From the NCBI RefSeq assembly GCF_037042905.1, contig NC_087250.1, forward strand, positions 18,478,001-18,538,000: a DNA stretch of 60,000 nt. The letters are read 5' to 3'. This stretch comes from Lytechinus pictus (Eukaryota). A program made the position numbers and the translations under genes. Of the stretch, positions 3,237-27,260 are shown one piece after another. Below the pieces are notes generated by a model. It was given only the letters and a program-made list of their open reading frames with translations, was not told where the DNA came from and made no database searches. Position 1 is the stretch's first letter. Each line of letters opens with the position of its first letter.

Positions 3237-3423
3237 ATAGGTGGCATTCCGGTAGGGTTGCTGTAACCTGGGTAGTAGGAGGGGCTTGTCTGTTGTTGGT
3301 CGTAACCATAGAGACCCTGCTGGACGTAGCCCCGCCCTGAACCTCGGGTGTAGCGTACATAATTGCCTTTGTCAACAGGCTTGGCGAGAACAACCTCGAT
3401 CTTAGCACCATCTAGAAGGGCAT
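3237..3423 (-). CDS. A1CF: A1CF-like coding exon 3 (end of RRM3 DALLDGAKIEVVLAKP + Y/G-rich linker)
   Basis: TTTACAG|AT acceptor matches phase 1. AT|GTAAGT donor (phase 2), 187 nt. IEVxLAKP motif present. Confidence 0.9.
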
Positions 3424-3954
3424 CTGTAAATAAATATGGATATTGATTAAAATTCAAAATATTTCGTAAAGCAGATTTTGCAAAGACTGAGTGAATTTCA
3501 ATAGCCTTTTTTCATGGAAAAATATTCGGGTATGCAATGTGGAGAAATAAATGTGGGCTTATGAATAAATTAACATGGCATCGGTAATATCAACCACACA
3601 ACTTAGCTAACAATATTGTTACTTCTCACTCTTCGAAAGGATTCAACCAAGTTAATTATCTCGCATATTTTTCCCAATTAATTTCAATTATCTGATTGAA
3701 ACAGATACTACTATTGTTCAAAATTTGAAGAATACTGTCAAAGTAAACTACAAACAAATCTGGTCATGGAATTATAAAACCCGAGATTCCAACAGTGGTT
3801 TGAATAAGGCTCTAGAGACTTTCACAAAGCCCCTTGTCAGTGATTCTTAATGACAAATAACCTCACAGCCAATCACATGCAAGTACTTCAGTAGCTTACA
3901 ACATATATCACACACACTGACACAAGTACTTTCATGAAATCCCCCGTTACTTAC

Positions 3955-4129
3955 CGTCCATAGCATTCATTGCATTGAGGGCATCTTCCCTGGAGAAGAA
4001 ATGGATGAAGGCAAAATCTCTGAGTTTCTTCACTCTCTCCACGCTTCCTTCCTTGAACTTGTTGAACTCTTTGGCGATGGTTTCTTCTGTTGTGTGCAGC
4101 ATAAGGTTCCTCACGTATAAGATTTTGAC
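3955..4129 (-). CDS. A1CF: A1CF-like coding exon 2 (RRM3: [16 protein letters not shown]...[13 protein letters not shown]...AMNAMD)
   Basis: CAG|GTC acceptor (phase 0) continues [12 protein letters not shown] as in the family. G|GTAAGT donor (phase 1), 175 nt. Confidence 0.93.
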
Positions 4130-4500
4130 CTGCATAGGGATAAGCAAAAAATAAGCATATACAGCATAAGGTTTTTCATGTATAAGATTTTGACCTGCAT
4201 ATTATGTATGAAGCAAAAGGTAAATGTATATAGCATAATATTTTTCATGTATAAGATTTTGACCTGCATAGGGATAATCAAAAATAAACATATACAGCAT
4301 AAGGTTTTTCATGTAATAAGATTTTGACTTGCATAGGTACAAGGAAAAAGTAAACATATACAGCATAAGGTTTTTCATATATAAGATTTTGACCTGCATA
4401 TATGTAAAAGCAAAAGATAAATGCATACAGCATAAGGTTTTTCATGTATAAGATTTTGACCTGCAAAGGTACGAGAAAAAAAAAACAAATAAAGATAAAC
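4130..4500 (-). repeat. Tandem array (~65-69 bp unit) of duplicated exon-2 splice acceptor plus first ~35 nt of the exon
   Basis: Five extra copies of ...TGCAG|GTCAAAATCTTATACATGAAAAACCTTATGCTG starting at 4194, 4263, 4328 (CAG mutated to CAA), 4393 and 4460. Confidence 0.92.
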
Positions 4501-4504
4501 ATTG

Positions 4505-4628
4505 GACAGGATAGGATAAAAACATTGAAGGGACAGATTTAAATCTGATCAATTTTTTTTTATCCACGGCCGTCCTAGAACTTATTGAACTCTTTGGCAT
4601 TAATGGTTTCTTCTGTTGTGTGCAGCAT
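4505..4628 (-). pseudogene. Degenerate pseudo-exon copy of A1CF-like exon 2
   Basis: cttattgaactctttggcattaatggtttcttctgttgtgtgcagcat (4580-4628) closely matches 4058-4102. Weaker similarity extends toward 4505. Confidence 0.75.
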
Positions 4629-5616
4629 GAGACATGGCAGGTATGGTAAACCCCAATCACGTTTTGTCCATGGCCATCATTAGAAAATCAACTATGGAAA
4701 TGGTTTTAATGATTTGTTGTGTAATGAAGAAAATATTTCCCAGGTGTAAGAATTAATATGTACAGGTATAAGAAAAACATAAACAAATTATGAACTTTTG
4801 ACAGGATTGGATATTAAAATAAATTCAATTCCTGTTCATATTTGTTCTCCATTCATTGCCACCTTAAACTTTCTGACGTTTCTGTGCAGCAAAGAATGTG
4901 CATGATTTTTATCTTCATACCTGTACATGCAGGTACATGTACAGTAAATAAAGACAGGGAAAAAATACATCAACCTGTATGCAAAAATAATACTATGTAT
5001 AAAGAGGGAATGTAGGTACATGTACGGTAAATAAAGACAGGGAAAAATATATCAACCTGTATGCAATACTATGTATAAAGTAGGAAAAGGTAAAATGTGA
5101 AAATTCCTATCAAGTGGGAATTCAAATGATAAATATTTTCCAATGTTTATATAATCAACTCCTCACTCTTATTGGCAGGGTTCCTTTAATAGGACAAAAA
5201 TTATAAAACAATTATAAGGTAAATTCTAGGGTTGGGGATACAAGTATACAAGTCTCTTGCAATATTGTATTAGATAGACAGCATGAATTGAAATGAATCA
5301 TTTTAAAAGTCACTTTGGGGAGAAATCTTGAGTAAAATATGGGGAGACAAAAAGAGGCGTGTACCCCGCTAATTCTCCAACACTTCATACATGTACGAGG
5401 GCAATTCATTTACTATGTACAATGTTGTACAAGTACAAGTAGTTAAGCATACAATGAGTTTCAGAGTTCAAATACGTTGATTCATATCTCTCGTATTACA
5501 GAATAAGACAAACCAAACATATACCTTGGTTTGCGCAAGATACAACACTCTGATAAATATAGGTCAAAGAGCAAAACTAGCCTTGCATCAAGCAAACATC
5601 AATTTAATGGTAGTGT

Positions 5617-5878
5617 GGGAGGCACGATATCTCAGTTGGTAGAGCGGGGTTTTCAGATTCCGGTGCCCTGGGTTAAATGATTCCCACTTGGTATGCTAGT
5701 GCCCATAAAGGCATTAATCCTCATTACCAGGTCCCTTGGAGAGGACCTTAAGCTGTTGGTCCTCTGGTTGCTTGCTTACAACCGGGGTAATAATATCCAA
5801 GTCCTTTGGAAGTGCATAGAGACGTTATTCATAATGTGTTATGCGCTATACAAGAACTGACTATTAATATTATTATTA
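5617..5878 (+). mobile_element. tRNA-derived SINE (same family as 43770-43925)
   Basis: ctcagttggtagagc A-box, degenerate B-box, ggagaggaccttaagctgttggtcc core, (ATT)n tail. Confidence 0.75.
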
Positions 5879-7866
5879 CAACCATTCATGCTTTTTTTAA
5901 TAGCAATCACGTAAAAAAATCACTACCATTTACCCAAATTCAAGGTGGCCATTTTGTAATTTCTGAAGAAGTTACTTACCAAAAATTACCAAATGTTGCA
6001 GTTATGATGACGATGGTGAATTGCATTTGCACAGTGCAGGGTTTTTTTTCAGGGGCTACTTTTCACAAAACTCTCATTTACATTATCCATAAGCTTTAAC
6101 TCTGCAGTGACTCTCTTTTATTTTTCGTGGGTCTTTTTGAGCATTTTGGGGTGAAATCATTATGAGCCCCCATGCACTTGTTCCCTAATTTAATGTCACT
6201 ACCTGTGAAAAATATTCAAGATCTATGTTATGGATTTTTTTTGGAGATGGATAGGATAACTTTAATAGCTTTATACTTTAATACCCTTCAATACAATCAT
6301 CATCAATTTTGAAAAAAAGAAATCTTCATTAAACATAGAGTAGGCCTACTCCTTGGACAGAAAAATCTGTCTGTTCCTCAGGAGCTTTTTTATATTTCCA
6401 ACATGGAGGGATGTCGTGAAGCCAGACAAAGTCTCAGCGGAACATATCCCAACCGAATTTTTTTTTTTTGTCTAGTCTACTCCTTGACATTATAAGTGTT
6501 TATACCAAACAGCCAATGCCCCCACCCTCCCCCTCCTCTTGAGAAAAAAAACGAACCCCCCTAATTCATAACCTAAGAATAAAAATAATGCAGTAAAAGC
6601 CTTGCAACAAGGCCACACCAAGGGCCCCTACTGTTGAACCAATGTTAATCATTAACCATTAGGCAAACACAGAAGCTGCAGTTGTCTATCTGAAAATAAT
6701 GCCATATCTGCATAAATTTGAACCTTCATGTTTCCATGGCCCCCAGTTCAAGAATTATCTTTCGTTTTCCTAAAGGCCGTACATGTATTAACCATATTGA
6801 CTGTATACACCCATCTTCATGTATTTGGCTTCACAAACTTAATACAGAACCATATATTTTGTGGTTGATATATACATACATGTATATACTCAATTTACAA
6901 TGTAAGCCCTACTTTTTCAAATCTGAGGACAATTAAAAAGGTCAAATTGTATTAGTCACAAAACTTCAAGGAAGAGAAGTGGGTGCTAGTTCGTTTATTG
7001 GCAATAAAATTAGTTCTTTTAGGATGATGAGTATATCAGGCCACATTTAATACTGGTAACTTTTATAATCTAATTAAATTATTGTAACCATCTAGTCTGC
7101 TGTGCAAACCCTTCACTCGAGTAAAGAGTCTGAATTGCAGCCTACTCGTGTACTGAAGGCCCCCTCGCTCATGTGGTAGTCTTTGCGTGGAGACACACTT
7201 GTTGATCAAAGTTTCAATCAGGGTCTGTGCCTGCAGACGAGTAACCATCAGTCTCTTTTGATTTGTTACAAATAATTTGTTTAGAAAATTTGAAATGTTT
7301 CAGCTAACTCAACTGCTAGTCCTACATGTAGTTCACAGTTCTTCAAATAGTAAAAAAATTGTTCTTCAAATAGTAAAAAAAAAAATTAATATTAAAAACA
7401 CCGGAACCAAGACTACACCATTCTAACAAGATAAATTTATGATAGGACATATCAGTTCATATTTTTTGTGCATCAGGGTGTGAACAAGCTATCATATCAT
7501 CACCTTCATTTAAAGTACAATCCATAGAGGTAAGTATTTGTATTGATATCTTTACCTCAATGAACATTGCACTCCTTGAGAAAAGAATAACCGTTCGCTA
7601 TGATCTGTTCTGACTTCTGAAAGTCATTTTCAATAGTTCAGAGAAAAAAAATGAAATGGGGGCAGGGGCGAATTTGCCCCTGAAATGACACAAGAGCCCC
7701 AAAAACTTCCATATAGGGTCTAATGCAAATTGTAATGTAGCAAGTGAGCTCAGAAAGAAGCCCTGGAAAGGATTTTTATATTAATTTTTCTCCTGCAATG
7801 GCTACTAATACTTTGTCATATATGTACACACTATAGGTTGTATGCAGCTGAGTTCATTAAATGCAA

Positions 7867-7980
7867 TCTATCCTCAATGACATCTATTCAACTATAAACA
7901 TCATACACATCAAAAAGTTAATTCTATCCTCAATGACATCTATTCAACTATAAACATCATACACATCAAAAAGTTAATTC
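7867..7980. repeat. Near-perfect 57-bp tandem duplication
   Basis: tctatcctcaatgacatctattcaactataaacatcatacacatcaaaaagttaatt occurs twice in tandem. Confidence 0.9.
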
Positions 7981-9080
7981 CTTGGCTGCTTTTATTATAC
8001 CGATATGCATATTCTATGTATAAATTATCAGAAAAGTCTTTGGGATAGAAAATTGAGCAATTTATCAAATCAAGTGAACAAAAATAGGGTACTTTTATCC
8101 CTTTAAATCCTGCAAATATCGCATAACAATAGGTCTCAGATGTTTGATTTGGTGGAAGCAAATTACTTCTATTCAGAGAATCGGATAGGTTTACAACTAG
8201 TCTATCCATCAGCGAGCCAGTCGTGCGTGAAAAACTACAAATGTATCGAAGTCACTGATCATTTAACACCCCAGACCCTACCTTGGCCACATTATGCTAT
8301 GGTCCGAAATACCTTTACAAATGCTGTACGAATGATTTCATACCATTTTGATTACTATGTTCATGTATAAAATTGTTCGTACAGCGATTGTGAAGATATT
8401 TGTGACCATAGCAGCACTTAGAAATTTGCAATCAATTGCAAAATGACATCACAATGATCAATCAAGACCCTTGTAGTACATCTACATTTCCAGCCAAAAA
8501 ATTATGTTTTACTTTCGAAGGTTATTCCAATTGCCTACATGTATATCTGCAACACTGGATATAATCATTGCAAAGAATGGAGGAATTTGGGGGCTCATTT
8601 TCAAGTTCCCATGGCTCTTTTTTGCGCATTTTGGGGGTGAAACAGCCTGGGGGCCCCTGTGTAATTTTTCCTTGGTACATGTACACATGTACGGTGTAAA
8701 AGAGGGCTAAATTCAAGTCCATGGATGCCTTATTAATTGGCCTATTAAGTGACTATTTCACTGGCCTAGGATATTTTCTTACCCTTTTTAAATAATTCGC
8801 ATCTATGGTACGTGCCCTTTTCATATTGGTTAGCCCCTGAGAATATCTAATTTAATAGTCTCTCACATTTTCATCAAATAGTACTGTACAGGAACATGTA
8901 ATACAACTTTTCTCCAAATTGTTAACAAGGAAAAAATACACAGGGCTGGGGGAGTGGGGGCAAATTAGCCCCCAAAGCACTCAAATGAACCCTGGAAACT
9001 ATTAACAAGGAACCCTGACGATCCCCATTCATTGTAATGTTAAAGCTTAACCAATACTGCAGATTCAGGTAGTAAGTTAA

Positions 9081-11340
9081 ACAAGTGGAACGCCTCTGGC
9101 AGTCTCGCCTGCATTACGCGATTTAATATAGCAGCAGTGCTAACTTTGAAAACTACTATAAAATAATCATTCACAAAAACACCATTCATATAATGACATA
9201 ATACCACGTTCATTGACCATAAATGACATTTGAACGGTGACTTAAGACTTGTCAACTACACCCATATCCACATTTCATTCACTCTATCTATAAACTTTCA
9301 AAGTTATGATGGCAATTCAACAATTACCCCAACATGGCCTAAGTTTATTGACCTTAACTGACCTTTGACCTGGGTTTTGTGACCTGAAACTCACAGGGGA
9401 TGTTCAGTGATACTTGATTACTCTTATATGGAGTTTTATGAACTAGATCCATAAACTTTCAGAGTTAGGATGGTAATTCAACAAATACCCCCAACACGGC
9501 CAAAGTTCATTGACCTTTAATGACCTTTGACCATGGTCATGTGACCTGAAACTAGTACAGGATGTTCAGTGATACTTGATTACTCGTATGTCCAAGTTTT
9601 ATGAACTAGATCCGTAAACTTTCAGATTTAGGACGGTAATTTAACAAATACCCCCAACTTGGCCAAAGTTCATTGACCCTAAATGACCTTTGACCTTGGT
9701 CATGTGACCTGAAACTCAGGCAGGATGTTCACTAATACTTGATTAACTTAATGTCCAGTCAGACCGCAGGTCCCTATGCTAATGAGCAAAAAGGCCAGAT
9801 TCATCCAAATCATCTCGTGGCTGAATCCTCCTCCTTGCAAAATCTCGTGATTCGTGAGATTTTCTTTCTCTAAGCATTTACCTGTTTTAACCTCAAGTTA
9901 AATGAAATATTATTGCACCATCAGATAGAGTAAACGTTACTCTTTCATATTGGTTATTTATTTTGTATACAATATTTTGTTAAATAAGTAAATTTCTGGC
10001 CTGAAAATGTGCCTCAAAACTGAAATTTCTTCCTCTGTTTTCTTTTGCAAATTGTGCAAAACTTTTTATTTTGAGCCTCAATGACATTTATATCAACATA
10101 AAGCTGAACTTCTGTACTTTCTCACAATGCCACTCTTGATATGCAGCACCTTTTAATCGGGTCAAGATCACACTTTTCCCACCAAGGTACAAGACGAGAT
10201 TTCTGAAATTTTGTACTTGCATGAAATCCAGAGTTCTGATTGGCTGGATAAGATTCACAGAACAACAGGCGCGGGGTATTTGAGGAGATTACCACATGGG
10301 AAGTGTGACCTTCCCACGAACCCAGGCACTGGAACCGTTGGAATTTGCCAGTGTGCGGTCTCTTTGACCAATCAGAGTGCAGTATTCTTGTTTTCAAGCT
10401 GCTTTATGTATTTGGCAAATGAAAAGTGTGATCTTGACCCAATTAAACCAATTCTTATTTTGAAACCTATATCATTTCAAAGCATACATATTCAGCTTTA
10501 TCATGATATAAAAATCATTTGGGCTCAAACAAAAATAAAGTGTGAAAATAGCAGCTTTTGTCAGGTGAAAATATTTATTTTGTAGCATATTTTAGATCAA
10601 AATTTTAACCTATATTACAAAATCTTTGAATAAATCCAAACACATGACCTAAAAGAATGATTCTTCTTCTTTACAATGGTACCAAATTCATGAAATTTGA
10701 TGCACAATTAGAGCAGCAATGACCGAATGAAAAGAGGTGTTTTGGTCCGCATCAAGCTCATTAAATATGCAAAACATCTCAAGTCATGAATATCACTTGG
10801 ATGAAAGAAGCCACTTTCTTGGGACCTGCAGTCTGACTGATGTCCAAGTTTCATGAACTAGATCCATAAATTTTCAAAGTTATGATAGTAATTCAACAAA
10901 TAACCCAACTTGACCAAAGTTCATTGACGCTAAATGACCTTTGACCTTGTTCATGTGACCTGAAACTCAAGCAGGATGTTCACTAATACTTGATTAACCT
11001 TATGTTCAAGTTTCATGAACTAGGTCCATATACTTTTTAAGTTATGATATCATTTCAAAAACTTAACCTTCGGTTAAGATTTTGAAAATAATTCTCCCAA
11101 CATGGTCAAAGTTCATTGACCCTAAATGACCTTTGACCTTGATCATGTGACCTGAAACTTAGGCAGGATGTTTAGTAATACTTGATGAACCTTATGTTTA
11201 AGTTTCATGAACTAGGTTCATATACTTTCTAAGTTATGATGTAATTTCAAAAACTTAACCTCGGGTTAAGATTTGATGTTGACGCCGCCGCCGTCGGAAA
11301 AGCGGCGCCTATAGTCTCGCTCTGCTATGCAGGCGAGACA
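9081..11340. mobile_element. Helentron/HINE (DINE-1-like) non-autonomous rolling-circle element with internal ~160-bp tandem repeats
   Basis: Sub-terminal IRs gtctcgcctgcat (9102-9114) / atgcaggcgagac (11327-11339), terminal hairpin gtctcgc...gcgagac, (GCC)n near the end, A-run flanks without TSD, repeated tgacctttgacc...gtgacctgaaact units. Confidence 0.75.
9756..10839. mobile_element. Non-autonomous DNA transposon with 19-bp TIR and 5-bp TSD, nested in the HINE
   Basis: TIR cagtcagaccgcaggtccc / gggacctgcagtctgactg. TSD ATGTC at 9751-9755 and 10840-10844 splits one HINE repeat unit. Confidence 0.88.
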
Positions 11341-14300
11341 AAAAGTAGCCCCCCTCCCCCAAATTTTTTTTTTGCCTGATTAACTATTTGTAATTAATTC
11401 TGAATCTTTATGTAAAGAACCCCTTTAATATACATGTAGGCCTTCAACTTCAGTTTGATATTCATTTCCACATCCTGCAAATACCATATATCAGCATAAA
11501 TGCCATTCTCATGCATACTAGCAACAGAACTCTTCCCACAAACATAAAATGATGAAAGTGCTATAAAGTTTCATGTACAATAAACTTGTGTAGTTGGATA
11601 AAAATTATGCAAAGTCATAATGAAAACCCGGGCAAAATCCTACAAGCACTGTGCTAAAAATACACTTGATTGATGGGAATACAAATATGGAATTCAACCA
11701 TTTATCAATAAAGGATCTTCTATAAAGCTTTATGCCAATGTAAACCTCAAACCACTTGTAATTTTGATCATTTATTGCTAATTCAAAGATGAGCAGTTCC
11801 TTCCCATTCCTGAAAAGACTATAAGCCCACTCTTTTCATAAAATAGATCAGTGTTCAATCTGTATTGATGAGAAGTTTAGACTCTTGAATTTTGGGGAGT
11901 AAAATAATGTATTTTCACTAGTCATGGACCAAAAAATACCTGTCTTTGAAAAATGAAATACTATGTATTGTAGCTTTTTCTGTACTTCTCAGAGTAGAAA
12001 TCACTTCTTTGAGATTGAAAACCACCCTGTACATGTATTGGTCCTCCAAATATAGGGAGATGGAAAATAAATATTCATTTAAAGTGATTTAATAGTTAAC
12101 ATTGGTTTGACTTTTAAAAAATCTGAGCTAGAAGGTCACACTTGTCACCTGTGTCTGTGATATGTTACAAAAATGAAGCCAAGAAAAAATTGCGTTCGAA
12201 AATAATTATTTAGTGCTTCAAAAATTGAAATATAAAGTGACCGAAAACACCATCTTAATTTCATCACATATACTTATGTGTACTATTTAGGCGTCTATAA
12301 GACGCCTATTTACAAAATCGGGGTTTGCCTTGTAGTTTTAGCTTTTCATTCTCAATAATGGTTGTTTTCAGGGTTTATTAGTTCTAATACATGCACTTGT
12401 ACACATGTTTCATCTTGGTTTGAGAATTTTTTTAATCGGTTGCTCACAAAGTTAAACACTACCTTTAAAAACCACCCTGTACATGTATTACCTGGAGGTC
12501 CTCCAAATATAGGGAGTAGGAAAATAAATATTCAATTGATTGACTTGTAACTTAATATTTGTATTTGTAATATTGTATTTTATTATGCTGTGGAAGAAAT
12601 TGTTCATACCAAATTGACATGTACATGTAGCTCTACTTCTCATAGATTGAAAATAACACTAGTTTTAACAGAACCTAGAGGTCTTTCAAATGAAGGGAAA
12701 TTATAAAATACATGTATTTTTGTAAAGTAATCAGAACAATTGCAATTTAATTGGATTTTAATACAGATAAATTATGCTATGCCTTGGAGTATATCTTCTC
12801 TACATGTACTATTCTGACCAGGGAGGGCATCTCGAAGGGCCTTGTACATGTGGAAAAGACGATACAGAAATATGAAGCATTTGAATGGGAATCAGAGTCT
12901 TCTGCATGTAAAGATCATGGTAATTCACTGTGAATGTGACCACGTGCGTCTTTTTTTAGCTAAGTAATCGTCCACGTTGGCATAAAAGCAACAGCGCAAT
13001 AGAAGGCAATGCTTTCCCCTCCTAGGTAAATTTACACAGCAATGTGGATATTGACCCCGATCCTACCTCCACGTCTTTTGAAGAAGAGCAAATATATCAA
13101 ACAAATATAGGCCTTCAAGGATCGCTTCAATGTGTGTTATAGTTAGCAATGGGGTGAATGTAGAACTGTAGTAGAAAAGCAATACTGCAACAAATGAACA
13201 ATGTAGTTGATAATATACAGAGGATGAAATGTACAATTACAAGTATAAGGGTGTGAATAATTACAATTTAACATACGGGAGTGTGAATAATTTGATGTCA
13301 TGTTTGGTTAAAAAACTGACCCTATTTTGGTTGTAAAGTCAACCCCTTTCCAATGCCTATATCAGGCATATGAAGTTGTATCAAATTCAGTTTCATTTAA
13401 AATGCTTTTTGTCATTTAAAATGTGTTACTTCATGGAATATACTTCCATTTTAAATATTAATAAACTAATGAATAGGCCTATCAAAAATACCATTGCCTC
13501 AGTAACAGTTCAGAGTTAGGGTCCAAATCTAATGGAGATTCAATATCCCTTCCGTAGTTTGAAGGGATTCCTTATTTCACACAAAAATTCTTAAAATCCT
13601 TTCATTTTGGTTAATTTGCTTTAGTTCTGCGATAAAAAAAATTATAAAAGAAAAACCTCTTTCCACACCCCAAAATGGGACTTTTCAATATTACATGTAG
13701 TTGATCCTTGTCATTTTCAGAATTGATGACATGTCCATACTGTACATTCCAATAAATGGGAACAAGGAATTTCCTGAAATAACATTCTTTAAAAATATTT
13801 CCTATTTAATACTACAGTTGCACATTTATCACATAAATAGGAACACACAGGTTAAAATGGCAATTTTCTTTTCCCAAAAATGCATCCAGAAATGTTGCTA
13901 TTTTAAACGAACACTTGGCAGGTACATATATGTATTAAATTCATTCAGGTCTAACAATGTTTGAAATTTGGGTATAACTGAAAAAAAAAATATCTTGACT
14001 ATCATAGAAAATATTATATTTTTGTCTAATAAGTCACTATACATTGTAAGTCTGACGTGTAGAGCTGAAGTTTGCAGATGATTTCCAAATATAACACTTT
14101 GCTAGTTTCACAATTCTGCCTCACACTGTGGAGCTGGGAGTACACCCCTGCTCAAACAATAATATGAAATCACATGTTATATCATGACCAGTAGGATGGG
14201 AAGGTCCCTGGTCAAAACAAGGAGGTTAAAATAGCCATGGACGGACCTCCATGATTTATAAATCATGATACCACTCATGTCTCAATTACAAGCACCATTG

Positions 14301-14511
14301 TCACATCAATATACACATGTACATCAGCACATGCTTAATCTCCCCGTGTTTAGTCCCTGTTAAATCAGGCATGAGACCCCTCTACTCAATCACTCAATTA
14401 CCCCCATTGACAGTTACAGGGCTTTATTACACCAATGGGATTTAAGTTAATCCCTCCCAATCACCTCCCTGAGGGGATTGTCTGGGATGTAAAGTGATAC
14501 CCCCTCTTTAT

Positions 14512-15230
14512 CTCTGGTGTATAATTGGATTGAAAGTGATAAAGTTAGAAGAGAGTGACCTGAAGGAAAGGTCATTAAGGACAACTTTTTTATGTAATGT
14601 TCATTGTTGGCAAAATAAACTTTCTTCTGTTTATGTTTAGGGCTTGATACATGTATGTACTTAACTTTGTCAGCCTGTTGTTTGTAAATAAAACCAGATT
14701 TAATCAAACATAGACAAATTATTCTGTTTATTAATAAAGTAGTTTCTTGCAGGGAGACAGACAGCCAATTAAACTAGCCCCTGGTGAAAAGAATAGTTTC
14801 TCTCAGTGTGTACACAGTGTGGAAAACAAAATGCACACACGAGGGACTAAAAAAATAAATAAATTAAAAAAAAATAATAATAAAAACGTCTGGTGTATAA
14901 TTGGGTTGAAAGTGATAAAGTGAGAATAGTGTGACCTGAAAGAAAGGTCAAATAAAAAGGACAACTTTTTATGTAATGTTGGCAAAATAAACTTTCTTCT
15001 GATTATGTTTAGGGGTTTAAAACGTTATATGATGCCTGCAATTTGTATCTTGTAAAAACAGATGAAAACAGAAACAAAACATTCTCCTTTTTAGAAATAG
15101 AGAAGTTTCATGCAGGGAGAGGAGGGAGACGCCCAACTAAAGTCTAGCCCCTGTTGGAAATAGTTTCTCTCAGTGTGTTCACATAATGCGTTCACAGTGT
15201 TGAACACAAAGTGTACACAGAAAGGACTAA
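14512..15230. repeat. Diverged ~377-bp tandem duplication
   Basis: tctggtgtataattgg.ttgaaagtgataaagt...gtgacctgaa at ~14512 and ~14889, with shared downstream ctagcccc...aatagtttctctcagtgtgt. Confidence 0.8.
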
Positions 15231-15338
15231 AATAGGGTAGGCCTACAAAAAAATGAAACATACAGGGTGCTACATACATTTTATAAGAACTTGCACGATT
15301 GCCCGGGGCAAGTATAAAGTTAGAGTCGGGCAAGTGTT

Positions 15339-16082
15339 ATGAAGTGTCAGAAAGCTGTTGAAAAGACGATGGAGAGAGAAAGAGCAAAGATGAATGAAGA
15401 TATTGATAAAAGAATAGGAAAGCTTACGGAACTTATAGAGCAGAAATTAGGCTGCCTGCATGATCTAGAAGTCTTAATCGACAATAAGCTCAAGCAACTT
15501 CATGATGTTCAACTTTCTTTGGAGAGTGACAAAGATCGAGTCTGTGAGCTGACCCGTGACCTTGATGAACTCCAACAGTATTCTCGCCGCAACAACATTC
15601 GTATCTTTGGGCTTCCAGAAAAACCTGACGAAGACACTGATCATCTTGTGTGTAGTGTAGCTGAAAGGATTGGTATACATATCTCACCGCAGGATATAGA
15701 CCGTTCCCATCGTATAGGGAAGAAACTCACTCATGGATATGAATCTTCATCAACAGATAAAGTGCAAAGAAATTCCTACGCCGGTGCTGCTAGCAACACC
15801 CAGGAGAAGCCAATTCCACCCCGCCCAGTCATTGTTAAGTTTATCTCTTACAAATCCAAACTGGCTTTTATTAAGAATCGACGTAAATTAAAGGGATCTA
15901 AAGTAGTAGTATCAGAGGACCTGACGAAAAGGAACGCCAATTTGCTATCACAAACAGCTCGCAATGAAAAAGTACGCTCGGCCTGGACAATGGATGGAAG
16001 AATATTTGCCTTAATCAAAACAACAAATGGCAAAGAAATACATAAACTCATTACATCTCACACCGCTCTGTCAAACCTGTAG
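15339..16082 (+). CDS. LINE ORF1 protein (coiled-coil + L1-type RRM/CTD)
   Basis: LQQYSRRNNIRIFGLPE, DIDRSHRIGK, PRPVIVKF and VSEDLT motifs. Confidence 0.88.
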   Translation: MKCQKAVEKTMERERAKMNEDIDKRIGKLTELIEQKLGCLHDLEVLIDNKLKQLHDVQLSLESDKDRVCELTRDLDELQQYSRRNNIRIFGLPEKPDEDTDHLVCSVAERIGIHISPQDIDRSHRIGKKLTHGYESSSTDKVQRNSYAGAASNTQEKPIPPRPVIVKFISYKSKLAFIKNRRKLKGSKVVVSEDLTKRNANLLSQTARNEKVRSAWTMDGRIFALIKTTNGKEIHKLITSHTALSNL

Positions 16083-16249
16083 TCACAGGATTTTGCAATT
16101 TTGTAGTCCCAATTCGCTGACACTACCGGGTAATCAATGTTCTGCATCTGAAGGTTATTTTTACCTTGAACCACTGCATCCATGTACTGTTTGCAGATTT
16201 ATGTTTTGAGGTTTGATATTTAATGATAATTTTGTATACATACATGTTT

Positions 16250-17560
16250 ATACTTATATCCATATGTATCAATCCACATCTAGTACCATTATATCAATAT
16301 TTTTGTACAGGCTGTGTGACATTGATCCAGTACATGTACATTCTTGTACCGGTAACTGTTTGTTTGTACTTTAACATGCCTTTGAGCTGCATGTATGATA
16401 CTTATTGGTAGTATTATGTTTACATCTACATCAATATCAACTTGCATATCAACACCAATAACATCCATGAACATCAATAACTACATCGACATGTATATCG
16501 ATATTTTAAGTCTGAGGTTATATTTATTGAGTGTACTGAACTTACATATATCTACATCAACATGTATAATAACAACAACTGTACATCAATACCTACATCT
16601 ATCTACGGTATATCAATATTTTTGCATCCAGTACATGTACATCTTTCTAGATTGGTTGTTTGTGCTTTACGCCGTTGGTAGCACTGTATTTACATTTGTA
16701 CATCAATATCTACATATATATCAACACCAACATGAACATCAATAACTATAACTACATCTATCAATATCATTACTTAATACATATGTCTGACCTTGATCCA
16801 ATACACTTTTGCATTGTTTGCTTAAGTACTCATATGCCTTTGAGGTATGTTATTTATTGACTGTATTGTATTTACATTAATCTACATCAATAGCTACATG
16901 TATATCAACACCAATACCCATGTACATCTACATCTATCAATACTTTGCATGTAAAGGGTGTTTGACCTTGATCAAGTACATCCTTGTATTGTTTGTTTGT
17001 TCTTGATGACTTGATTGCATTTTACTTACATTTATCTACATCAATTTATCAACACCAATATTTACGTACATCAATATCGATATCTTCAATATTTTCTTAA
17101 GTTTAAAGGCTGTTCTACAGTGTAACTTGAATCAGTACATCCTTGTAATGTTTGTTTGTACTGTACATGCTTTTGAGGTGTTATATTTATTGATGGTATT
17201 GGGTTTACATTTATCAACATCAATAATTACATAGATGTATTTCAGCACTAATATCCGTGCACATCAATATTCACATATACATGTAAATATCAATATTTCT
17301 TGCATTGACATGTAATGCATGATTAACCTTGACGAGGTACATGTACATTGTTTATGTGCTTGTACTTCCATGTATGCCTTTTGAGGTATGAAATTTACTT
17401 ATAGTATTGCATTTACATTTATCGACATTAATATCTCTGCATACTAATATCAACACCAACATCCATGTACATCAACATCTATATCAATATTCTTGCACAA
17501 TATATTAAAAGGCTGTTTGACCTTGATCCATTACATCCTTGTATTTAATTGTACAATATG
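16250..17560 (+). repeat. Degenerate 160-200-bp tandem repeats in the LINE inter-ORF spacer
   Basis: Recurring gaccttgatc / tgcctttgaggt / atatcaacacca motifs (e.g. ~16318, 16789, 16965, 17125, 17326, 17519). Confidence 0.75.
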
Positions 17561-17884
17561 CCTTACATATTTCAGTGTATCTTAAAAGTATAGACATCCA
17601 AGAATATTACTGCGTTATTCCAAGCTGTGTGTGTTATTTCCAGAAGATAGGTCTTATTAATAGCTCCCTTTTTTTAACTATGTATTTTGCAGATTCTAGT
17701 CATTATATTTGAAAAGACACATTGTTATAATTCCTATTTTCCATGTTATATTCCTTATAATTCTGCATTTGTTTGTTTGTTTTTATTTGTTATCTTTAAC
17801 TGTTGTTGCTCCCCTCTTAGGTGTTATTCAATTTATTTTTTTTTTTCTTCTTTCTTTGACTTCCATTTACGTACCTACATTTAC

Positions 17885-20800
17885 ATGTCTAGCCGTACAT
17901 CATGTTGTACTTGTGAAATTATATGTGACCGAAACCATAGTCAAGCTGACTCATATGATTTTATATGTTCCATTTGCAATGGAAAACTCCTTCCTTTTAA
18001 CCATATTATTGAAGATGATGAGTTTTTATGGGCACTACAACAGTTTTTTCATATGAATAAGAGTATTCCATATGCTAATGTTCAAAATCTTAAAATCAAT
18101 CCTTTTGTAATGCATAACAACCTCAAAGACGTTCATTATTCTCTCAATCTAAATGCACAATCTGTAGAAGATATCTCACAGGATGAGACATTTCATTTCC
18201 CAACAAATCCATGTTCATATTATCTTCCTGATGATTTTTGTAATAAATATAATAACTCTGACGATAGACTATCTCTATTACACTTAAATGCAAGGAGTCT
18301 CTGCTCAAATTTTAGTAAACTTGAGGAGTTACTGACTTCCCTTGATTTTTCATTTTCTGTGATAGGAATATCAGAAACATGGCTGAATTCTTTCATGTTA
18401 ACGTCTATTTATAATATATCTAATTACTCATTTGTTCACACATGTCGAGATTCCAAGACTGGTGGGGGTGTTGCCTTGTATATTTCCGAAAACGTTGAAT
18501 TCCTTGAAAGACCAGATCTGACTGTAAATAATTTATTTCTTCAAACTGTTTTTATTGAAATTGTCAATGTTAACTCTAAGAATATAATTGTTGGGAATGT
18601 CTATAGACCTCCCAATACAGAAATTGACTTGTTTTTACATGATATGGATTCTCTGCTTATTAAAATACACAATGAAAAAAAAATACTATACTTAATGGGA
18701 GATTACAATATCAATTTGTTAAATACTGATAGACACACTAAAAGCAAAGAGTTTGCTGATAATATGTTCTCATACAATTTATTCCCAGTAATCACCAAGC
18801 CTACACGCATATCATATAAATCTGCTACTATAATAGATAATATTTTTACAAATGCAATCCAATTTGAATATGATAGTGGGCTACTATATTCTGACATTTC
18901 AGATCATTTCCCAATATTTTATGTTGCAAAAAAGTTTAATAATATTTCGATTTCAAGGGAACCCTGCCTGAAGAGAATGATAAATGATGATGGGATCGAT
19001 TGCTTAAAAAAGAAATTGAGCTGTCTAGACTGGAAACCAATCTATGCATCCAACGATGTCAACCATGCCTATGATCTGTTTTACTCAATTTTTTATGATG
19101 CTTATAATGAATGTCTTCCTACTGTTAACAGTAAAAAAAACAAAACACGATTTCACAAACCTTGGATTTCTTCTGGCATCTTGAAATCTATAAACAAAAA
19201 AAATATCCTATATAAAAATTTTCACAGATACTCTGGACCAGAAAAGATTAAAAAAAGGAAAGAAGAAAAATACAAAAGCTATAAAAACTGTTTGGTAAAA
19301 GTAATTCGGTTTGCAAAAAGAGAATATTATAATAAAAAATTTAACACCTTAAGAGGTAACATGAAGAAAACATGGCAAGAAATTAATAACATATTGGGGA
19401 AAAAAGCTCAAATTTCTCTACCAACCAAAATGTTTTACAATAATGAATCTTTTGATACCAATCAAATGAAATCTAATTATTTCAACAGATATTTTGCAAA
19501 TTTGGGCAAAAATCTTGCTCAAGTCATCCCTGACCCCCACACAGAGTTCATGTCTTTTTTAGGAGACAACAATATTCATTCAATGTTTTTTAAACCAACC
19601 AATATAAATGAAATACTAAAGATCTGCTCCTCCTTGAAATCAACGTTTTCCTGTGGCTCTGATGATATTATCCCATCTATTGTGAAAAAATGTATTTATC
19701 AATGTGTCCATCCACTGTGCCATATATATAATATGTCTCTTGAATATGGTGAAGTTCCTAATGCATTTAAAATAGCTAAAATTGTTCCAATTTTCAAAAA
19801 GGGTGATCGTAAAGACATTGTTAACTATAGACCAATTTCTGTTTTACCCATCTTCTCAAAGATACTAGAAAAAATTGTTTTTGAACGTTTGTACAGCTTT
19901 TTGAATCATAACAATATATTAATCTCACAACAATTTGGTTTTCGTAAAAGATATTCAACATACATGCCAATATTTCACATGTATGATCGTATAATGCAAG
20001 AAATAGATAAGGGTAATCTCACCATTGGTATATTTTTGGATCTCTCGAAAGCATTTGACACCGTTGACCATGACATACTTCTTAAAAAAATGAAACATTA
20101 TGGGATAAGAGGTCTCGCTCTTGATTGGTTTGATAATTATTTATCAAATCGCATGCAGTATGTTGTGGTCAACGGTGTCAAGTCAACTTTCAGTCATGTA
20201 TCACACGGCGTTCCGCAAGGGTCTGTCCTCGGCCCCTTGCTTTTCCTTTTGTATATCAATGACCTTGTAAATTGTTCCTCAATTCTTAATTTCATACTCT
20301 TTGCTGATGATACCAGTATTACTCTTTCTCAAAAAAATATTATTCCTCTCATTAACACCATAAACATTGAACTTCGTAAAGTCGTTGTCTGGCTTCAATG
20401 CAATAAACTTTCACTGAACCTTGAAAAAACTAAATTTATACTATTTAAAACACAAACTAAAAAAATTGGTAATGACATTCCTCCAGTTATTATGGATGGC
20501 AAGATTATTTCCCAGGTATCAAATATAAATTTTTTAGGTATCAAGATCAATGAATTTCTATCCTGGAAACCTCATATTGATGAATTATGCACTCGTTTAT
20601 CAAAAAGTACTGGTGTCCTCCGCAAACTGAAGTTTATTTTACCCAGACATGTATTAATTTCACTTTATAATACTTTGGTTTTACCCCATCTCACTTATTG
20701 CTGTATGCTATGGGGTAATGGATTCAAAACACATTTACATAGATTATTTCTTATTCAAAAAAGGTTAATCAGAACAGTTTGTAATGCACATTTCAATAGT

Positions 20801-21145
20801 CACACAAACAAGTTATTTCTTGATTGTAAAATATTGAAAATTTCTGACTTGGTTCTTATGTATACTTATATATTTATGTACAATTACCATTCAAATCTCT
20901 TGCCAAATATTTTTGATAATCTCTTCAACACAAATGCCTCTTTCCATTCATACTTTACGCGTCATTCAGCAGATCTTCACCAATATCTTCCAAAAACTAA
21001 AATTACCCAAAATTCTCTACGTTGTAGAGGAATTAAGCTGTGGAATGATTTAAATAATGATATTAAACAAAGTAAAACCATAAATAAGTTTAAAATACTC
21101 TTGAAAGTTGAATTTTTTGCTCAGTATAAAAACTCCTGCCAATAG
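17885..21145 (+). CDS. LINE ORF2: Cys-rich N-terminus, AP endonuclease, reverse transcriptase (1086 aa from first ATG)
   Basis: HLNARSL, ISETWL, GGGVALY, YRPP, GDYNIN, SDHFP (APE); YRPISVL, FLDLSKAFDTV, GVPQGSVLGP, FADDT (RT). Uninterrupted; the open frame extends up to 17687. Confidence 0.95.
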   Translation: MSSRTSCCTCEIICDRNHSQADSYDFICSICNGKLLPFNHIIEDDEFLWALQQFFHMNKSIPYANVQNLKINPFVMHNNLKDVHYSLNLNAQSVEDISQDETFHFPTNPCSYYLPDDFCNKYNNSDDRLSLLHLNARSLCSNFSKLEELLTSLDFSFSVIGISETWLNSFMLTSIYNISNYSFVHTCRDSKTGGGVALYISENVEFLERPDLTVNNLFLQTVFIEIVNVNSKNIIVGNVYRPPNTEIDLFLHDMDSLLIKIHNEKKILYLMGDYNINLLNTDRHTKSKEFADNMFSYNLFPVITKPTRISYKSATIIDNIFTNAIQFEYDSGLLYSDISDHFPIFYVAKKFNNISISREPCLKRMINDDGIDCLKKKLSCLDWKPIYASNDVNHAYDLFYSIFYDAYNECLPTVNSKKNKTRFHKPWISSGILKSINKKNILYKNFHRYSGPEKIKKRKEEKYKSYKNCLVKVIRFAKREYYNKKFNTLRGNMKKTWQEINNILGKKAQISLPTKMFYNNESFDTNQMKSNYFNRYFANLGKNLAQVIPDPHTEFMSFLGDNNIHSMFFKPTNINEILKICSSLKSTFSCGSDDIIPSIVKKCIYQCVHPLCHIYNMSLEYGEVPNAFKIAKIVPIFKKGDRKDIVNYRPISVLPIFSKILEKIVFERLYSFLNHNNILISQQFGFRKRYSTYMPIFHMYDRIMQEIDKGNLTIGIFLDLSKAFDTVDHDILLKKMKHYGIRGLALDWFDNYLSNRMQYVVVNGVKSTFSHVSHGVPQGSVLGPLLFLLYINDLVNCSSILNFILFADDTSITLSQKNIIPLINTINIELRKVVVWLQCNKLSLNLEKTKFILFKTQTKKIGNDIPPVIMDGKIISQVSNINFLGIKINEFLSWKPHIDELCTRLSKSTGVLRKLKFILPRHVLISLYNTLVLPHLTYCCMLWGNGFKTHLHRLFLIQKRLIRTVCNAHFNSHTNKLFLDCKILKISDLVLMYTYIFMYNYHSNLLPNIFDNLFNTNASFHSYFTRHSADLHQYLPKTKITQNSLRCRGIKLWNDLNNDIKQSKTINKFKILLKVEFFAQYKNSCQ

Positions 21146-24100
21146 CACACTGTAGGTCACTATTATTTATAATTATTACTTCTAGTTTGCTTGTTTGTTT
21201 ATTTCCCCTATGTTTAATAGCCCATTGTTTTTTGTTTTTTTTTAAATTGTATTTCAATGTTATTTGTTGTTCACTCTTTATGTACATGTATGTATTATAT
21301 TAATTTGTATTTGATTGTACCATGGTGGTGCCCCACTCACAAGTTTTTTTTAATGAAAACTTCTAGGGGCTCCCAATCCCATGTTTTTACCTAATTTGTA
21401 TATACCTGTATTTTTATGATTGATTGATTGAAATAAATTTTGAATTGAAATTTGAAATTGAATTGAAGTAAAGACCAAAACTACTTGCCCGAATTGGGCA
21501 AGCAAAAATTCTCACAGTAGAATGATCAAAATTAGGGTCGATATGATATGATATTGACCCTAATTTTGGTCATGACAGGCAGATCAGTTCATGTCAAAAG
21601 AGAGAAAAAAGGTAAAAATAACCGCAAAACTTTATTTTGAAGAGGTAAAACTTTTTTTCAAGGTTTTTTCGGGCCAGTGAAATAGATTTTGGGGCAAGTA
21701 TATTCCAACTATTTGAAAATGTACTTGCCCGACTGGTCAAGTGCTTCTAAAAAGTTATGAAGCACCCTGGAAACATACAGTACATGTTCAAGGTTTTTTT
21801 TTTAAAGTTTCATGCTCCTGGAAAAGCCTTCATTCAAAATGTGACCAATTATCAAAATGCATAACATCTTGGACAAATCCACAATTGCTTCCAAGTTTCA
21901 AAGAGCTATTAATACCCAGGGTTATTTTTTTGTGTTTGTTATCAACTAGAATGGTTTCTCATTAACTTTTCCAGACTCTTATCAGTTTATTCAAAGATTA
22001 TAGCTCCATGATGCTAACCACTGCTAAAGTACATGTATGTACAATTAATGCACATTTGTGTACTTAAAATATTAAGTCTGAGACCCACTCTAATACTGTG
22101 AGCAGTAGGCCTATAATGATATTATCTTTTAATAGTTTCAGCATTCAGCAAAGATAAATACATTATTTCTACAATCAATATTTAAAGAATTTGTCCTCCA
22201 TTAGATGGTTTTTTTAAATGCATTTTATGAAGCAATCCTCTCCACTGAATGGTAATAATTTTAACAGTAAAAAAAATATGGTCACTTGCCAATAGAGCTG
22301 TACAATGAACAAACTATTTAAACACTCAATTGTTTTTCTTTTTCTTTGAAATGGGTGTCTACAAACACTGCATCCGTTTAGGCCTATAGTTCTACGAACA
22401 ATGAATCTCATTTATTTTAGAAATGGTAATCGTTTCCAATTTTGACATCAAAATCAAAGGAGATGAATCATGTCATTTATAAACAGATAAAGAAGTATTT
22501 TTCTGTAAACATAACACACCAACATCATACTCATTATTTTCTTTTTCTTTCAAATTGGCAGCTGGTTTTAATGCCTATTGAAACTTTACTCCTTGTTAAA
22601 AACAAACAAACAAAACAGCAGTAGCTCATATAAGTGGACTATTATTGAGAAAAAAGGACTATTCATCTCCAAAACATAACATGTCAACATGAAAACCATT
22701 GTTTTCTTTGGGAAGGTTTCAACCCTAGTAGTGAACCAACACACTCTTTTTGTTTATGTTTTTTAGAGTAAAACAAAAAAAGTTAATAATTAATCTTTTC
22801 TTTTTAAATAAAAGAAATCAAAGTCATGCGTATGCAGAAAAACACACATTTTTTTACCCCAACATATCACATTAGAACTATTCTTTACATTCTTTTTTTT
22901 GTAATCTTCATTGGATTTCCTAATAGTAGCTTTATCATTTTTTTAAATTCAGCTCTGTATGCCTCTGGCAAATCCTTGATCCATCTATTTGATTCAAGTT
23001 TGTCAAGAGGTTCATACATGTATATCAATGGAAGGGGGCGTGTCTACTAGGGTTTTGTAGTTGCAGCCATTTAAAGGGACATTTTTTACCATATTTTGAA
23101 TTGTTTAATATTCTGTAGACTTTGTCAGGGTTTGCATAGAGAACCAGACCCATACACCAATAAGAAAATTTTAAATTTAGATCTGAGAACTGATTTCCAT
23201 CATTCATAACATACATGTACAGCTCTTAATTGAAATACATTTTCAGCCTAAAAAGATACAGTACACTACGGTATGAACATGATATCAATTGCATGTATAA
23301 AGGCCTTTAAAGGGCAAATTTGTGGATGTAGTGTAGTATCATATCATATTGAATGAAGCCACACCCCCCCCCCCATAAAAAAACCACAATAAAAAAATTG
23401 TCATCATCTCCCACAAGAAGTATGAGAAAGAGGAAAGAGGGAGGGGTGCAGGCAGGCAAAAAAAATATATTTTCATGGTCTACTTTCACATCCTTCTGCC
23501 TAAATCTGCAACATTAAATGAAATAACATTTAATTGGATCTGAGATTTCCAAGGGCTCTTTTTTAAATTTCCAAGGCTATTTTGAGTATTATGTTTGGGG
23601 GCAAATCGCCCGAGCTCATGTGTAATTTTACTTATTCCAAGGATGTACATGATCTAGGAAGGCAGCATTTAAATGTATAGACTTCGTCTTTAATAGGTTG
23701 TATGCCTATTCAACTTTGCCCATACACATCACTATTTAAACACCATTAAACTGATTGATATCTCAATCAGTCTGGAAGACAGACTATCACTTCTCACGTG
23801 TATGCCAATGAGCAATCAGCTAGGAGAAGTCAATTGTGCGTTGGTGTGGGAGGTGAAAAACCCAAGTGCTAACAATCCAGGTTTACACCACGCTTGCATC
23901 AAGCCTGGCCGGCGGGATGACTCAGGACATTTCACAAACCCCTCTTTTTTCCTTCAAATCTACTTTATGAATGAAAAATCTATTTTAAGCATTTAGTCAT
24001 CACTACTCCTCGCATGTGTATTTACAATGTAGATTCTGAATTTAAAGAAGACTAAACAGGGGAAATATTGTTGAGAGAGACTACATGAAGGTCAATAGAG

Positions 24101-27100
24101 TGTGTCGTATAAAAAGAGAAATATTCATTAACAAGAATAATGAATACTGGTATTTCAATGCTTTTTTTTTAAGTTCCAAGTTTATTTTAAATTCTACTTT
24201 ATAGCAATTACTTAACAGCTTTACACAGTAGACAAAATATGAAGATTAACAATACAAAACATGCAAAATCGTTAGAGTGGAATTGTGTATTTTTTCATAT
24301 CTCTTCAAGTACAAGTACTAAGGAAATGGAGGGATTCACTAAAAAAAGGGAAAATGTGTACTATGTGCTAACATTTTTACCCTTTCCCCTCTCTTTCTCA
24401 ATAAATATAGGAAAACATGTCATGTAGGTCTATCATGAATCAATGTATTTTCTTGGAGAGCATTATGAAGGGAACTTAATCACCAAAATGTGATGATTTG
24501 AATACATGTTGGACTAATACCCAGTACTGATAACAGGAAAAGTCTAAAGCAAAAGTGGTAAAAAAATGCATAACATAAAATACAAAAACTTCTCAATTTG
24601 ATATCATGAGCATTATGCATTTCCACTCATAATCGCCCCACCCCCACCCCAATTTTTTATAAAGGAAATAATTTGGCAAAACTGAAGTTTGTGGGTCAAA
24701 TAAAACTGGCATATTGCCATTTGTTGTAGTAAATTACACCAAATTTCTTGCACAGCATGCATGAAGTCAGATTTCACATGCTTTACACATAATGAACTTT
24801 TTTTAGCCTTGATACTCTCAAGTAATTGTTACTGATCTCATATTTGGGTCCAGATAAATAGAGCATGAAATTGGCCTATTGAACTGCACATGAACTATTC
24901 ACCACATGCAAGTAGAGTGTACTACTTTTACAGTGAAATAATAAACAAGGAGAAAGAAAGGGAAAAGGAGAGTAAAGGAAAAGGAGAGAGAAAGGGGAAT
25001 TAAAATATGAAACAGAGGGTGGGGTAGGGATAGTGTGTGGATATTGTATGCAGACCCACATACATGTACAAAAGTGCTATTAACTCCTCAATAATTTAAG
25101 GGAATATTTCACTAATCAGTATTAATTGAGATCAATGAACAATATTTTGGAAAGTGAATTATTCAATCACATATTAGATTGTGATTATTATAACCACAAT
25201 GATCATAACAATTTATAATGGTCATTTTTATGATTAGGATAATGACAAAATATTATATTCAGGAAGGAAAGAGAATAACAAACAAAATGTTATTTTTTTG
25301 AAAAGCCAAGTTCATTTGGACTGTTGCAAGAAACTTGCAATCAATTGTTAGTCAATTTCTATAACCAAATCAATCTCTATAACCAAATCAATCACAAGTC
25401 TTGTAATTGATTGCAAATTTGTAACTGATTGCTGGTCTGTTTCTTGCTTCATTTTGGTAAATTGATTGATTTGCTTTTTTAGACCTAGTTAAAATTGGTC
25501 TATCACTTGTAAGTTTGTGACTTGCATTTGCAATTGATTGCAAAGAACTTGCAACACACACTTTAGGCAACAAAAATTGTGATTCAGAAATTACCAACTG
25601 GATAAACAAAAGCTGGTTTCGAATTGCATTTGTATCAAACTTGGATGTTGTTTATGAAGAAATCTGATTAAATTGAGAATGATTGCGGTAGACCTACCAC
25701 TATGGCTCTGTTTTAACACAGACTTATTAACAATTAGATTCAAAGTTGACACAAGTCATAGAAGATTGTGGAGTCTTTGGATTAAAGGAATAAAATGGCA
25801 AAAAACATTTGGGAGACTTATTCTTCAAAATAAGCAAGCTCTTTAATGTTCAGGTTTCAAGTTGAGGCATAACTTCAAACAATTATAACAAACATTTTTT
25901 TTTATGGGGTAGCGGTAGGGGTATTTGAAGTAGTAGGTACATATTCTATAGAATCATTTACTAGTATGACAAAGAAGCTGATTACATTATTGTCCCCACC
26001 TCCCGATCTTAATACCTGAACTGGAGGGGGAAAAAAGAAAACAAAAAGCCACTGCCCAGAGGACAGAGAATAAACCTCCATATAAATACCACAAAGTCAA
26101 CTTGGCCAATCTTTTTGATGAAACGGTCTGGATTAGGGTTTAAAAGTTAGGCAACAGAAACCCGTTAAAGAATAGAGGTGATGTTTGCCGAGTGGGGTCG
26201 AAACCTTGGCATAAACAAACACAAGCGCCGGAGATAATGGCGCGAGAACACACGAGGTTGCGCTGCAAAAGCCGCTTCATCAAACGAGGCGTCGGCGGCA
26301 GCGGCAGCAGTAGATCTCCCGGCGGCCCAGCCGCCGACGAAAAGAGATCTTCCGAAAGCGCTGGTCACGCCACGTCGTGAGTTAAAGCGCTCGCACCTCT
26401 TGCCAGGCAATTACACATTAAACTTTTCAGGTCTCGAGTCTTAAGAATTAGAGGTCTTTCGCAAAAATCTAAATAATGAATTCTTTTAAGAAAAAAACAA
26501 CAACAATAACAAACTTCAACAACAATTTTTGTTTCAAACACAACCATACCATATAAAAGCTAGATATTACCACATCTCACTCAGACCTCAGTAACAAGTC
26601 AATACAAGAACGTTTGGTCCTGCCTTGACCTTGGCCTATCTTTGACTTTGGAAGTTTGACAGCAACATTAACATGAAAAAGAAGACTGATTTTTACATAG
26701 GCCCCTACACTTTTATTTTTTTTCATTTGATATTGTTATTTATTATAAAATAAAAATATTTCTAGGAACATAGACAATATCTTTTTTATCAATATTGCTC
26801 TTGATTAGATCTAGATCTATTAAGTCTATAACCTATTATTTAGACAAAATTAGAAATCTAGATCTAAATCATACATACAAATTTACAATGAATAATCAAT
26901 CAATATCACTCAGGTCTGGAAAATAAGTCTCTCTTACTTCACATGGAAAATCAGTATTCCAGTAAAAGTACACTTGGCTATTGTTTAATACTAATATATA
27001 ATACTAATGTTACTGTTTAATACTAATACTTTAGACTTAGTTTAGGCCCAACATTAGTCGAATAGGCTTTCAACTTTCAACTCAACTTCTAAAGTCTCAA

Positions 27101-27260
27101 CCTTAGTTAGTTTTAGGTTCGGTATTTTCTTTTTTTTTACTGACATAGACTAGGGCCTACGACTCAGAGGTCTTGCAAATTTTTCAAATGTTAGATCTAT
27201 CTGAATTAAGTCCCAAGTCTAACCTTAAGTTAGTATTTTATGAAAAAAAAAGGAACTCAC

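Follow-up and report, generated by a model that had tools for sequence, protein, structure and literature searches.

Five tandem copies of a 3' splice site before the RRM3 exon of an A1CF/RBM47-family gene in Lytechinus pictus: a probable tolerated mirage minisatellite

In an A1CF/RBM47-like gene of Lytechinus pictus, a long intron ends in a series of copies of its own acceptor. This layout raises the question of whether the copies are used as splice sites and serve the gene, or are passed over. The original prediction, made from the sequence alone, had regarded them as decoys that the spliceosome meets before the true site, and possibly as a poison-acceptor rheostat. We analysed the locus in the window, by which we mean the whole stretch of 60,000 nucleotides; all positions are counted from its first letter, and the gene lies on the minus strand.

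By its sequence, the host gene belongs to the A1CF/RBM46/RBM47 family, an assignment made at the level of the family. The protein of the first coding exon is 99% identical to proteins of Lytechinus variegatus and Strongylocentrotus purpuratus, which their source names A1CF-like or RBM46, and vertebrate RBM47 comes next, at about 79% identity. The exons and the long intron are as follows.

27261..27953, minus strand: first coding exon, 231 codons, RRM1 and RRM2 (two stretches with Pfam RRM_1), donor TCG|GTGAGT, phase 0; from tblastn of homologues
4130..27260, minus strand: GT-AG intron of 23,131 nt with the array at its 3' end; junction in spliced contigs
3955..4129, minus strand: true RRM3 exon, 175 nt, donor ACG|GTAAGT; from the joint 3423-3955 and the loose end at 4130
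3237..3423, minus strand: next exon, 187 nt, end of RRM3; from homologue tblastn and spliced contigs
2466-2310, minus strand: coding exon; from homologue comparison and the joined reading frame
1492-1409, minus strand: optional coding exon, 84 nt, in frame; present in some homologous isoforms, absent from others

When joined (27953-27261, 4129-3955, 3423-3237, 2466-2310 and the optional 1492-1409), these exons give 432 codons with no stop. RRM3 begins in the exon at 4129 according to both the PDB match and Pfam, and the best PDB match of this exon is 2cpd, APOBEC-1 stimulating protein (E 5e-22). The length of the intron agrees with the 23 kb given before. The 84-nt exon is isoform-dependent in homologues from urchins and starfish to amphioxus, and conserved alternative splicing of the host gene seems to be located there rather than at the array.

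Directly upstream of the RRM3 exon, five head-to-tail copies of 65–69 nt were found, each consisting of an acceptor and 36 exon bases. The copies of the exon start at 4194, 4263, 4328, 4393 and 4460, i.e., 65, 134, 199, 264 and 331 nt upstream of 4129, at the offsets that had been predicted. TRF reported the array at 4097-4498 with a period of 65, 6.1 copies and a score of 496. Identity between the units is about 80%, and no two are the same.

4425..4500, minus strand: copy 5, acceptor 4460, tract of 17/20 pyrimidines, 36 exon-derived bases; shared with organism B
4358..4424, minus strand: copy 4, CAG acceptor 4393, offset 264, in frame, stop at 4204-4202; in X1 record 7 together with copy 5
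4292..4357, minus strand: copy 3, AG lost, CAA|GTC at 4328, one additional T in the exon half
4228..4291, minus strand: copy 2, CAG acceptor 4263, offset 134
4159..4227, minus strand: copy 1, CAG acceptor 4194, offset 65, weakest tract (12/20)
4130..4158, minus strand: true acceptor with its pyrimidine tract and CAG, a part-unit that closes the array; used in three of three transcript assemblies

Five decoy 3' splice sites had been announced; there are five copies, but only four AG decoys. CAG|GTC is kept in these four, as had been noted, and copy 3 reads CAA|GTC. From -23 to -4, the AG copies have 17, 14, 14 and 12 pyrimidines of 20, the true site has 15, and the other three acceptors of the gene have 13–15. 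The best tract therefore stands at the most upstream copy (4460) and not at the true site, and the tract of copy 5 is likely to be the ancestral one.

The true boundary aligned to its upstream neighbourhood with a score of 146, as compared with 21–30 for the eight other exon boundaries tested, none of which had a nearby copy by this alignment. From this difference, the array is not a chance resemblance. An origin in the assembler, of either the array or the count of five, is very remote. There is no contig across the entire array, and copies 1–3 are without a long piece in organism A, as would be expected of such an artefact. However, the units are distinct from each other, X1 record 7 (4350-4732) contains two acceptors, and X5 has one or two decoys. 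Record 7 is an independent contig with at least two copies, and the array is therefore no assembly artefact.

From the sequence, splicing to any of the four AG copies would produce an exon of 240–506 nt with a premature stop 156–323 nt ahead of the next junction. The NMD rule applies to stops located more than 50–55 nt before a downstream junction. The claim that any use of a decoy yields an unproductive transcript was thus correct in its geometry for every AG copy, and the in-frame site at offset 264 does reach the stop at 4204-4202. The list of frame-shifting offsets needs one correction: offset 199 is unusable as written, having no AG. The G>A change in copy 3 creates AAG|TC one base downstream, at offset 198, which is in frame and runs into the same stop.

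The region 3200-5300 was compared with the contigs of four of the 17 runs listed, X1, X2, X5 and X9. X1 and X2 belong to one study and X9 to another; all three are from organism A and were taken as transcripts from their spliced joints. X5 is a DNA run of organism B. In X1, X2 and X9, the joint 3423-3955 was present and the end of exon 1 was joined to 4129, at depths of 205, 320 and 450, respectively, and the 3' end of the first coding exon appears as a loose end at 4130. The acceptor at 4129 was the only form joined to exon 1 in all three assemblies, as far as contigs report the major form. No decoy junction was found in the X1, X2 and X9 contigs among the matches listed (24 of 88 rows for loose ends, 32 of 214 for pieces). 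The depth in the bin 4123-4193 was fully explained by the listed contigs in all three, which leaves no cover on 4131-4193.

In these assemblies, each 31-mer is present once (Logan preprint), and a surviving decoy junction would therefore split the main contig at +16. Contigs run unbroken across the junction and +16 in X2 (record 9, 2170 nt), X9 (record 24, 3408 nt) and X1 (record 6). X1 retains unspliced intron-2 sequence at a depth of 3.4 against 217 for the spliced form. The argument lies in the junction together with the unbroken contigs, since missing cover over the array alone is no evidence. Short low-depth paths are removable by graph cleaning, and no run was NMD-blocked. These data suggest that decoy use is below a few percent, a value compatible with a small leak, as contigs drop rare forms and NMD depletes them. 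The skipping of the decoys, which had been put forward as the other option, matches the transcript contigs. In the 531-nt intron, a short element at 3820-3910 was matched in each of the four runs by numerous unrelated contigs, at a depth of up to 2741 in X5, and is therefore a common dispersed repeat.

In the rheostat proposal, splicing would move to the decoys under the influence of the encoded protein or of the number of copies, with NMD thereby setting the level of this A1CF/RBM47-family protein. The position of the premature stops suits this proposal, as do decoy tracts that match or beat the real acceptors of the gene, the presence of at least one decoy in organism B, and a copy number that seems variable; NMD would also hide decoy forms from steady-state contigs. 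On the other hand, the decoy junction was absent from all three transcript assemblies, the copy number has not been conserved, one of the copies is without an AG, and the older ones have decayed. Repeats of this class have been reported without aberrant mRNA (PMC3902484, PMC3087553), and our literature search on autoregulation of RBM47 by a poison exon found nothing beyond a review. We regard a rheostat as very unlikely, and the contigs lend it no support. The statement that the spliceosome meets the decoys first assumes scanning of the whole intron, in which 25 YAG sites are preceded by 15 or more pyrimidines in 20 positions.

A different use of the array would be an intron gain in progress, in which copy 2 (4263-4195) serves as a cassette exon, 4194-4130 becomes a new GT-AG intron of 65 nt and 23 residues are added before RRM3; alternatively, decoy use could be repaired by re-splicing. 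The segment 4263-4195 (69 nt) is the sole unit divisible by three, and it is stop-free. The bin 4194-4264, which coincides with this unit, showed a depth of 12.8 in X1 and 7.87 in X9, two different studies, and none in X2, and no listed piece accounts for it. A related route from such a repeat to a new intron was suggested by Ebner et al. (PMC3087553). The pieces on the bin are no longer than 49 and 39 nt, provided that the listing gives the longest, and less than 95% alike by likeness tallies; for these two reasons, they are likelier to be look-alikes from other transcripts. The putative donor, CAG|GTCAAA, has C at +3 and lacks the +5 G, and the donor rebuilt after splicing of exon 1 to a decoy fits four of nine consensus positions, as compared with 6–7 for the five real donors of the gene by a crude count. 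Re-splicing from a decoy is unlikely because of this poor fit. A donor scan inside the units reached at least 5/9 only at the CAG|GT boundaries, at the CAA|GT of copy 3 and at one other site. A break in the main contig, and cover or a joint into 4129, would be expected from a cassette exon, and neither was seen in the contigs. In addition, a span of 25 residues across the junction is the same in all 115 homologues that match the junction pattern, of 120 listed and mostly predicted proteins; the remaining five are P0001, P0027, P0028, P0044 and P0084. An intron gain is therefore, in our estimate, extremely improbable.

Recursive splice sites are similar in having AG|GT within a long intron, as the CAG|GT of four copies does here, and 4460-4130 is formally a GT-AG intron. 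They differ in that the rebuilt donor of the array is weak and no intermediate was seen.

Copy number was compared with the relatives. The window differs from organism A at 16 positions in an intron contig of 585 nt, and from organism B at 24 in 326 and 21 in 255, so that organism B appears to be a relative more distant than organism A. X5 record 22 skips 4149-4425 (275 nt) with five letters between, so that a single decoy remains, some 61 nt before the true acceptor. Two alleles cover the exon start in X5, as records 20 and 21. The contig ends lie at 4144 for record 21 and at 4115 for record 22, and record 20 reaches, at its far end, the equivalent of 4179-4209. Such ends are consistent with branching at +16, where a decoy departs from the true exon, and the depth sums exclude another upstream contig. 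The organism B individual would therefore carry a one-decoy and a two-decoy allele, unless a record was filtered out. Thus, one decoy is common to the window and organism B, and the length differs between the window (five decoys) and the organism B contig (one decoy). The element is not conserved across species in number, as judged from this one relative. A neutral minisatellite had been said to follow if decoy junctions were missing even under NMD block and the array was either absent from relatives or an artefact. The array is real, copies are fewer in the relative but not absent, and decoy junctions were unseen in contigs made without NMD block.

Further upstream, two older relics were found, which were absent from the original prediction.

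4563..4631, minus strand: orphan exon copy of approximately +25 to +98, carrying a stop and an insertion of 3 nt but no acceptor; local alignment score 104, reached by 0 of 266 controls
4736..4846, minus strand: decayed copy of the distal acceptor context, without AG; local alignment score 72, reached by 0 of 266 controls; within X5 record 22

The orphan exon piece was also matched by blastn (87% over 62 nt) and by tblastn, and both relics lie in a region to which a contig of organism B extends. These relics indicate that the boundary was duplicated more than once. A third candidate, at 5067-4887 (score 54), was matched by two of the 266 control windows and was not accepted. The segment 4895-5086 contains a tandem duplication of 82 nt and a stretch of 66 nt, the latter absent in organism B. 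X5 is without 66 nt at 4895-4962 and 76 nt at 5006-5083, showing that this end of the intron generally gains and loses short duplications.

The two halves of the copies have diverged to different extents. Among the copies, four of 36 columns are variable in the exon-derived half and 17 of 29 in the intron half (Fisher p 6e-5, the columns not being independent), and none of 400 column shuffles reached the best split of columns. Pairwise mismatches number 24 in 430 for the exon half and 56 in 218 for the intron half. Five G/C-to-A/T changes against the true exon, at +16, +20, +21, +34 and +36, are common to all copies, which would therefore descend from one stub. The first difference from the exon is at +16 in three AG copies and at +15 in one, and the first 35 nt contain 3–4 G in the copies and 7 in the true exon. 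The contrast between the halves is not predicted by plain neutral drift after one expansion. It could come from fast mutation of the T-rich tracts, from mixed tract sources, from short conversion or from selection.

If selection is the cause, the exon-derived halves may be kept as an intronic splicing element or a platform for RNA-binding proteins, such as a silencer acting in favour of the true site, and not as acceptors. The strength of the contrast would agree with this, as would the five common changes, of which the difference at +16 seems to be shared with organism B, judging from contig ends at 4115 and 4144. On the opposite side, T-rich tracts mutate fast by slippage and their alignment is ambiguous, and the copies may have taken tracts from different sources; the tract of copy 3 is equally distant, by five of 22 positions, from both candidate source tracts. 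A single-copy allele exists in organism B, and the older relics are without such conservation. We consider selected exon halves quite unlikely.

The closest known systems are the mirage minisatellites of amphioxus, reported for BflGb6, BflGb9, Adh3, troponin C and PGBD5 (PMC3087553, PMC3902484). Ebner et al. described the same layout in BflGb6, with six and three units in different haplotypes, 81–100% identity and unaffected splicing (PMC3087553). The mirages of Adh and troponin C are likewise stated to be without effect on splicing in the PGBD5 paper (PMC3902484), and somatic instability is reported for Adh3 (PMC3087553, PMC3902484). The array here is similar in having head-to-tail units that span the boundary of the host intron and exon. 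As in a mirage, the splice signal is kept in many units but not all (four of five), the length is unstable in comparison with a relative, and regular splicing is undisturbed for the major form in contigs. The differences are an echinoderm host, a unit of 65–69 nt as compared with 150–160 in BflGb6 and 10–72 in Adh3, boundaries that are all of the CAG|GT type, and a marked contrast in conservation between exon and intron parts, which is not mentioned in the passages on amphioxus mirages (PMC3087553). No echinoderm mirage was evident in a literature search with supplements and subscription papers outside its reach. The cause of such repeats at exon edges has been called unclear (PMC3087553), and in the model of Rogers, as cited by Ebner et al. 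(PMC3087553), introns arise at proto-splice sites of the form AG|GT.

Two human loci provide further comparisons. CBS 844ins68 is a 68-bp duplication of an intron/exon junction with two acceptors about one unit apart, of which the downstream one is used and gives normal mRNA (PMC2630376, PMC1802585). It has one additional copy instead of five, and skipping at CBS relies on runs of G that separate the two acceptors. Such silencing would not apply to the present units, which are G-poor. The 37-bp VNTR in intron 7 of F7 is, like our array, a polymorphic minisatellite across an exon-intron boundary; its pseudo-sites are functional but silent, and the site adjoining the full exon wins (PMC1557585). 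That VNTR is on the donor side, with pseudo-sites identical to the real site and 50 constructs tested, while the array here is known from the sequence and contigs. RNA structure was also considered as a silencer of the decoys. The predicted unpaired probability at -3..+1 was 0.22 at the true site and 0.11–0.30 at the four AG copies, and folding thus shows no contrast with the true AG. The poison exons of SR and hnRNP genes are in actual use, under regulation and conserved over long evolutionary distances. The array resembles them in its RRM protein host and in the stop that its use would place in NMD position. It differs in having no seen use, and in a number and sequence that turn over between close relatives.

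Taken together, the array is with high probability a tolerated mirage minisatellite, variable in copy number and without function, that is ignored through exon definition. A single duplication of about 61–65 nt across the acceptor would have left the old tract and an exon stub upstream and placed a new tract before the full exon, and the one-copy allele of organism B would be the state expected after this step. The stub would then have taken the five G/C-to-A/T changes, and the number of units would have drifted by slippage or unequal exchange, to one and two in organism B, at least two in X1 and five here. The true site wins most likely because only its AG precedes a full exon with a strong donor, 175 nt away; the decoys precede 36 G-depleted bases followed by AU-rich intron. 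Exon definition would be the mechanism of skipping, although predicted folding gives the true AG no advantage over the copies. Any leak would presumably be removed by NMD, which would lower its cost and hide it. The survival of four of the five AGs and the contrast between the halves stand against a repeat without function.

Because the exon halves are conserved and the contig pieces at 4194-4264 are unexplained, a co-opted mirage is retained as an unlikely reading. Acceptors variable in copy number and coupled to NMD, with a selected exon half, would then tune protein dose, or copy 2 would be a 69-nt in-frame exon. In that case, the A1CF/RBM47-family transcript would be partly diverted in some stages, with allele length setting the dose of the protein. 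Should splicing to the decoys prove to be regulated, or to scale with the number of copies, this would be an NMD switch tuned by repeat length on the gene of an RNA-binding protein, and of real interest. As an ordinary mirage, the locus has modest weight, as an acceptor-side case in an echinoderm, backed by transcripts and accompanied by a relative with a single copy. It is also a natural test of exon definition, with the upstream acceptor of best tract passed over after a 23-kb intron, and the uneven conservation of the halves, if genome-wide, is a measurable clue to the origin of exon-edge repeats.

Several other elements were observed in the window. Antisense in the long intron, 17678-21145 on the plus strand contains a frame of 1155 codons between stops, in which endonuclease and reverse-transcriptase domains are present, apparently an intact LINE-type ORF by its sequence. 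Upstream of it lie a 252-codon frame without a Pfam match (15324-16082) and, between the two, degenerate repeats (16352-17545). The long intron also holds two related tandem arrays, 9264-9757 and 10837-11274, with periods of 163 and 192. An element of about 600 nt, which we take to be MITE-like from its shape, is present in three copies that match themselves in both orientations (28306-28920, 29632-30235 and 56648-57256), two of them just upstream of the host gene.
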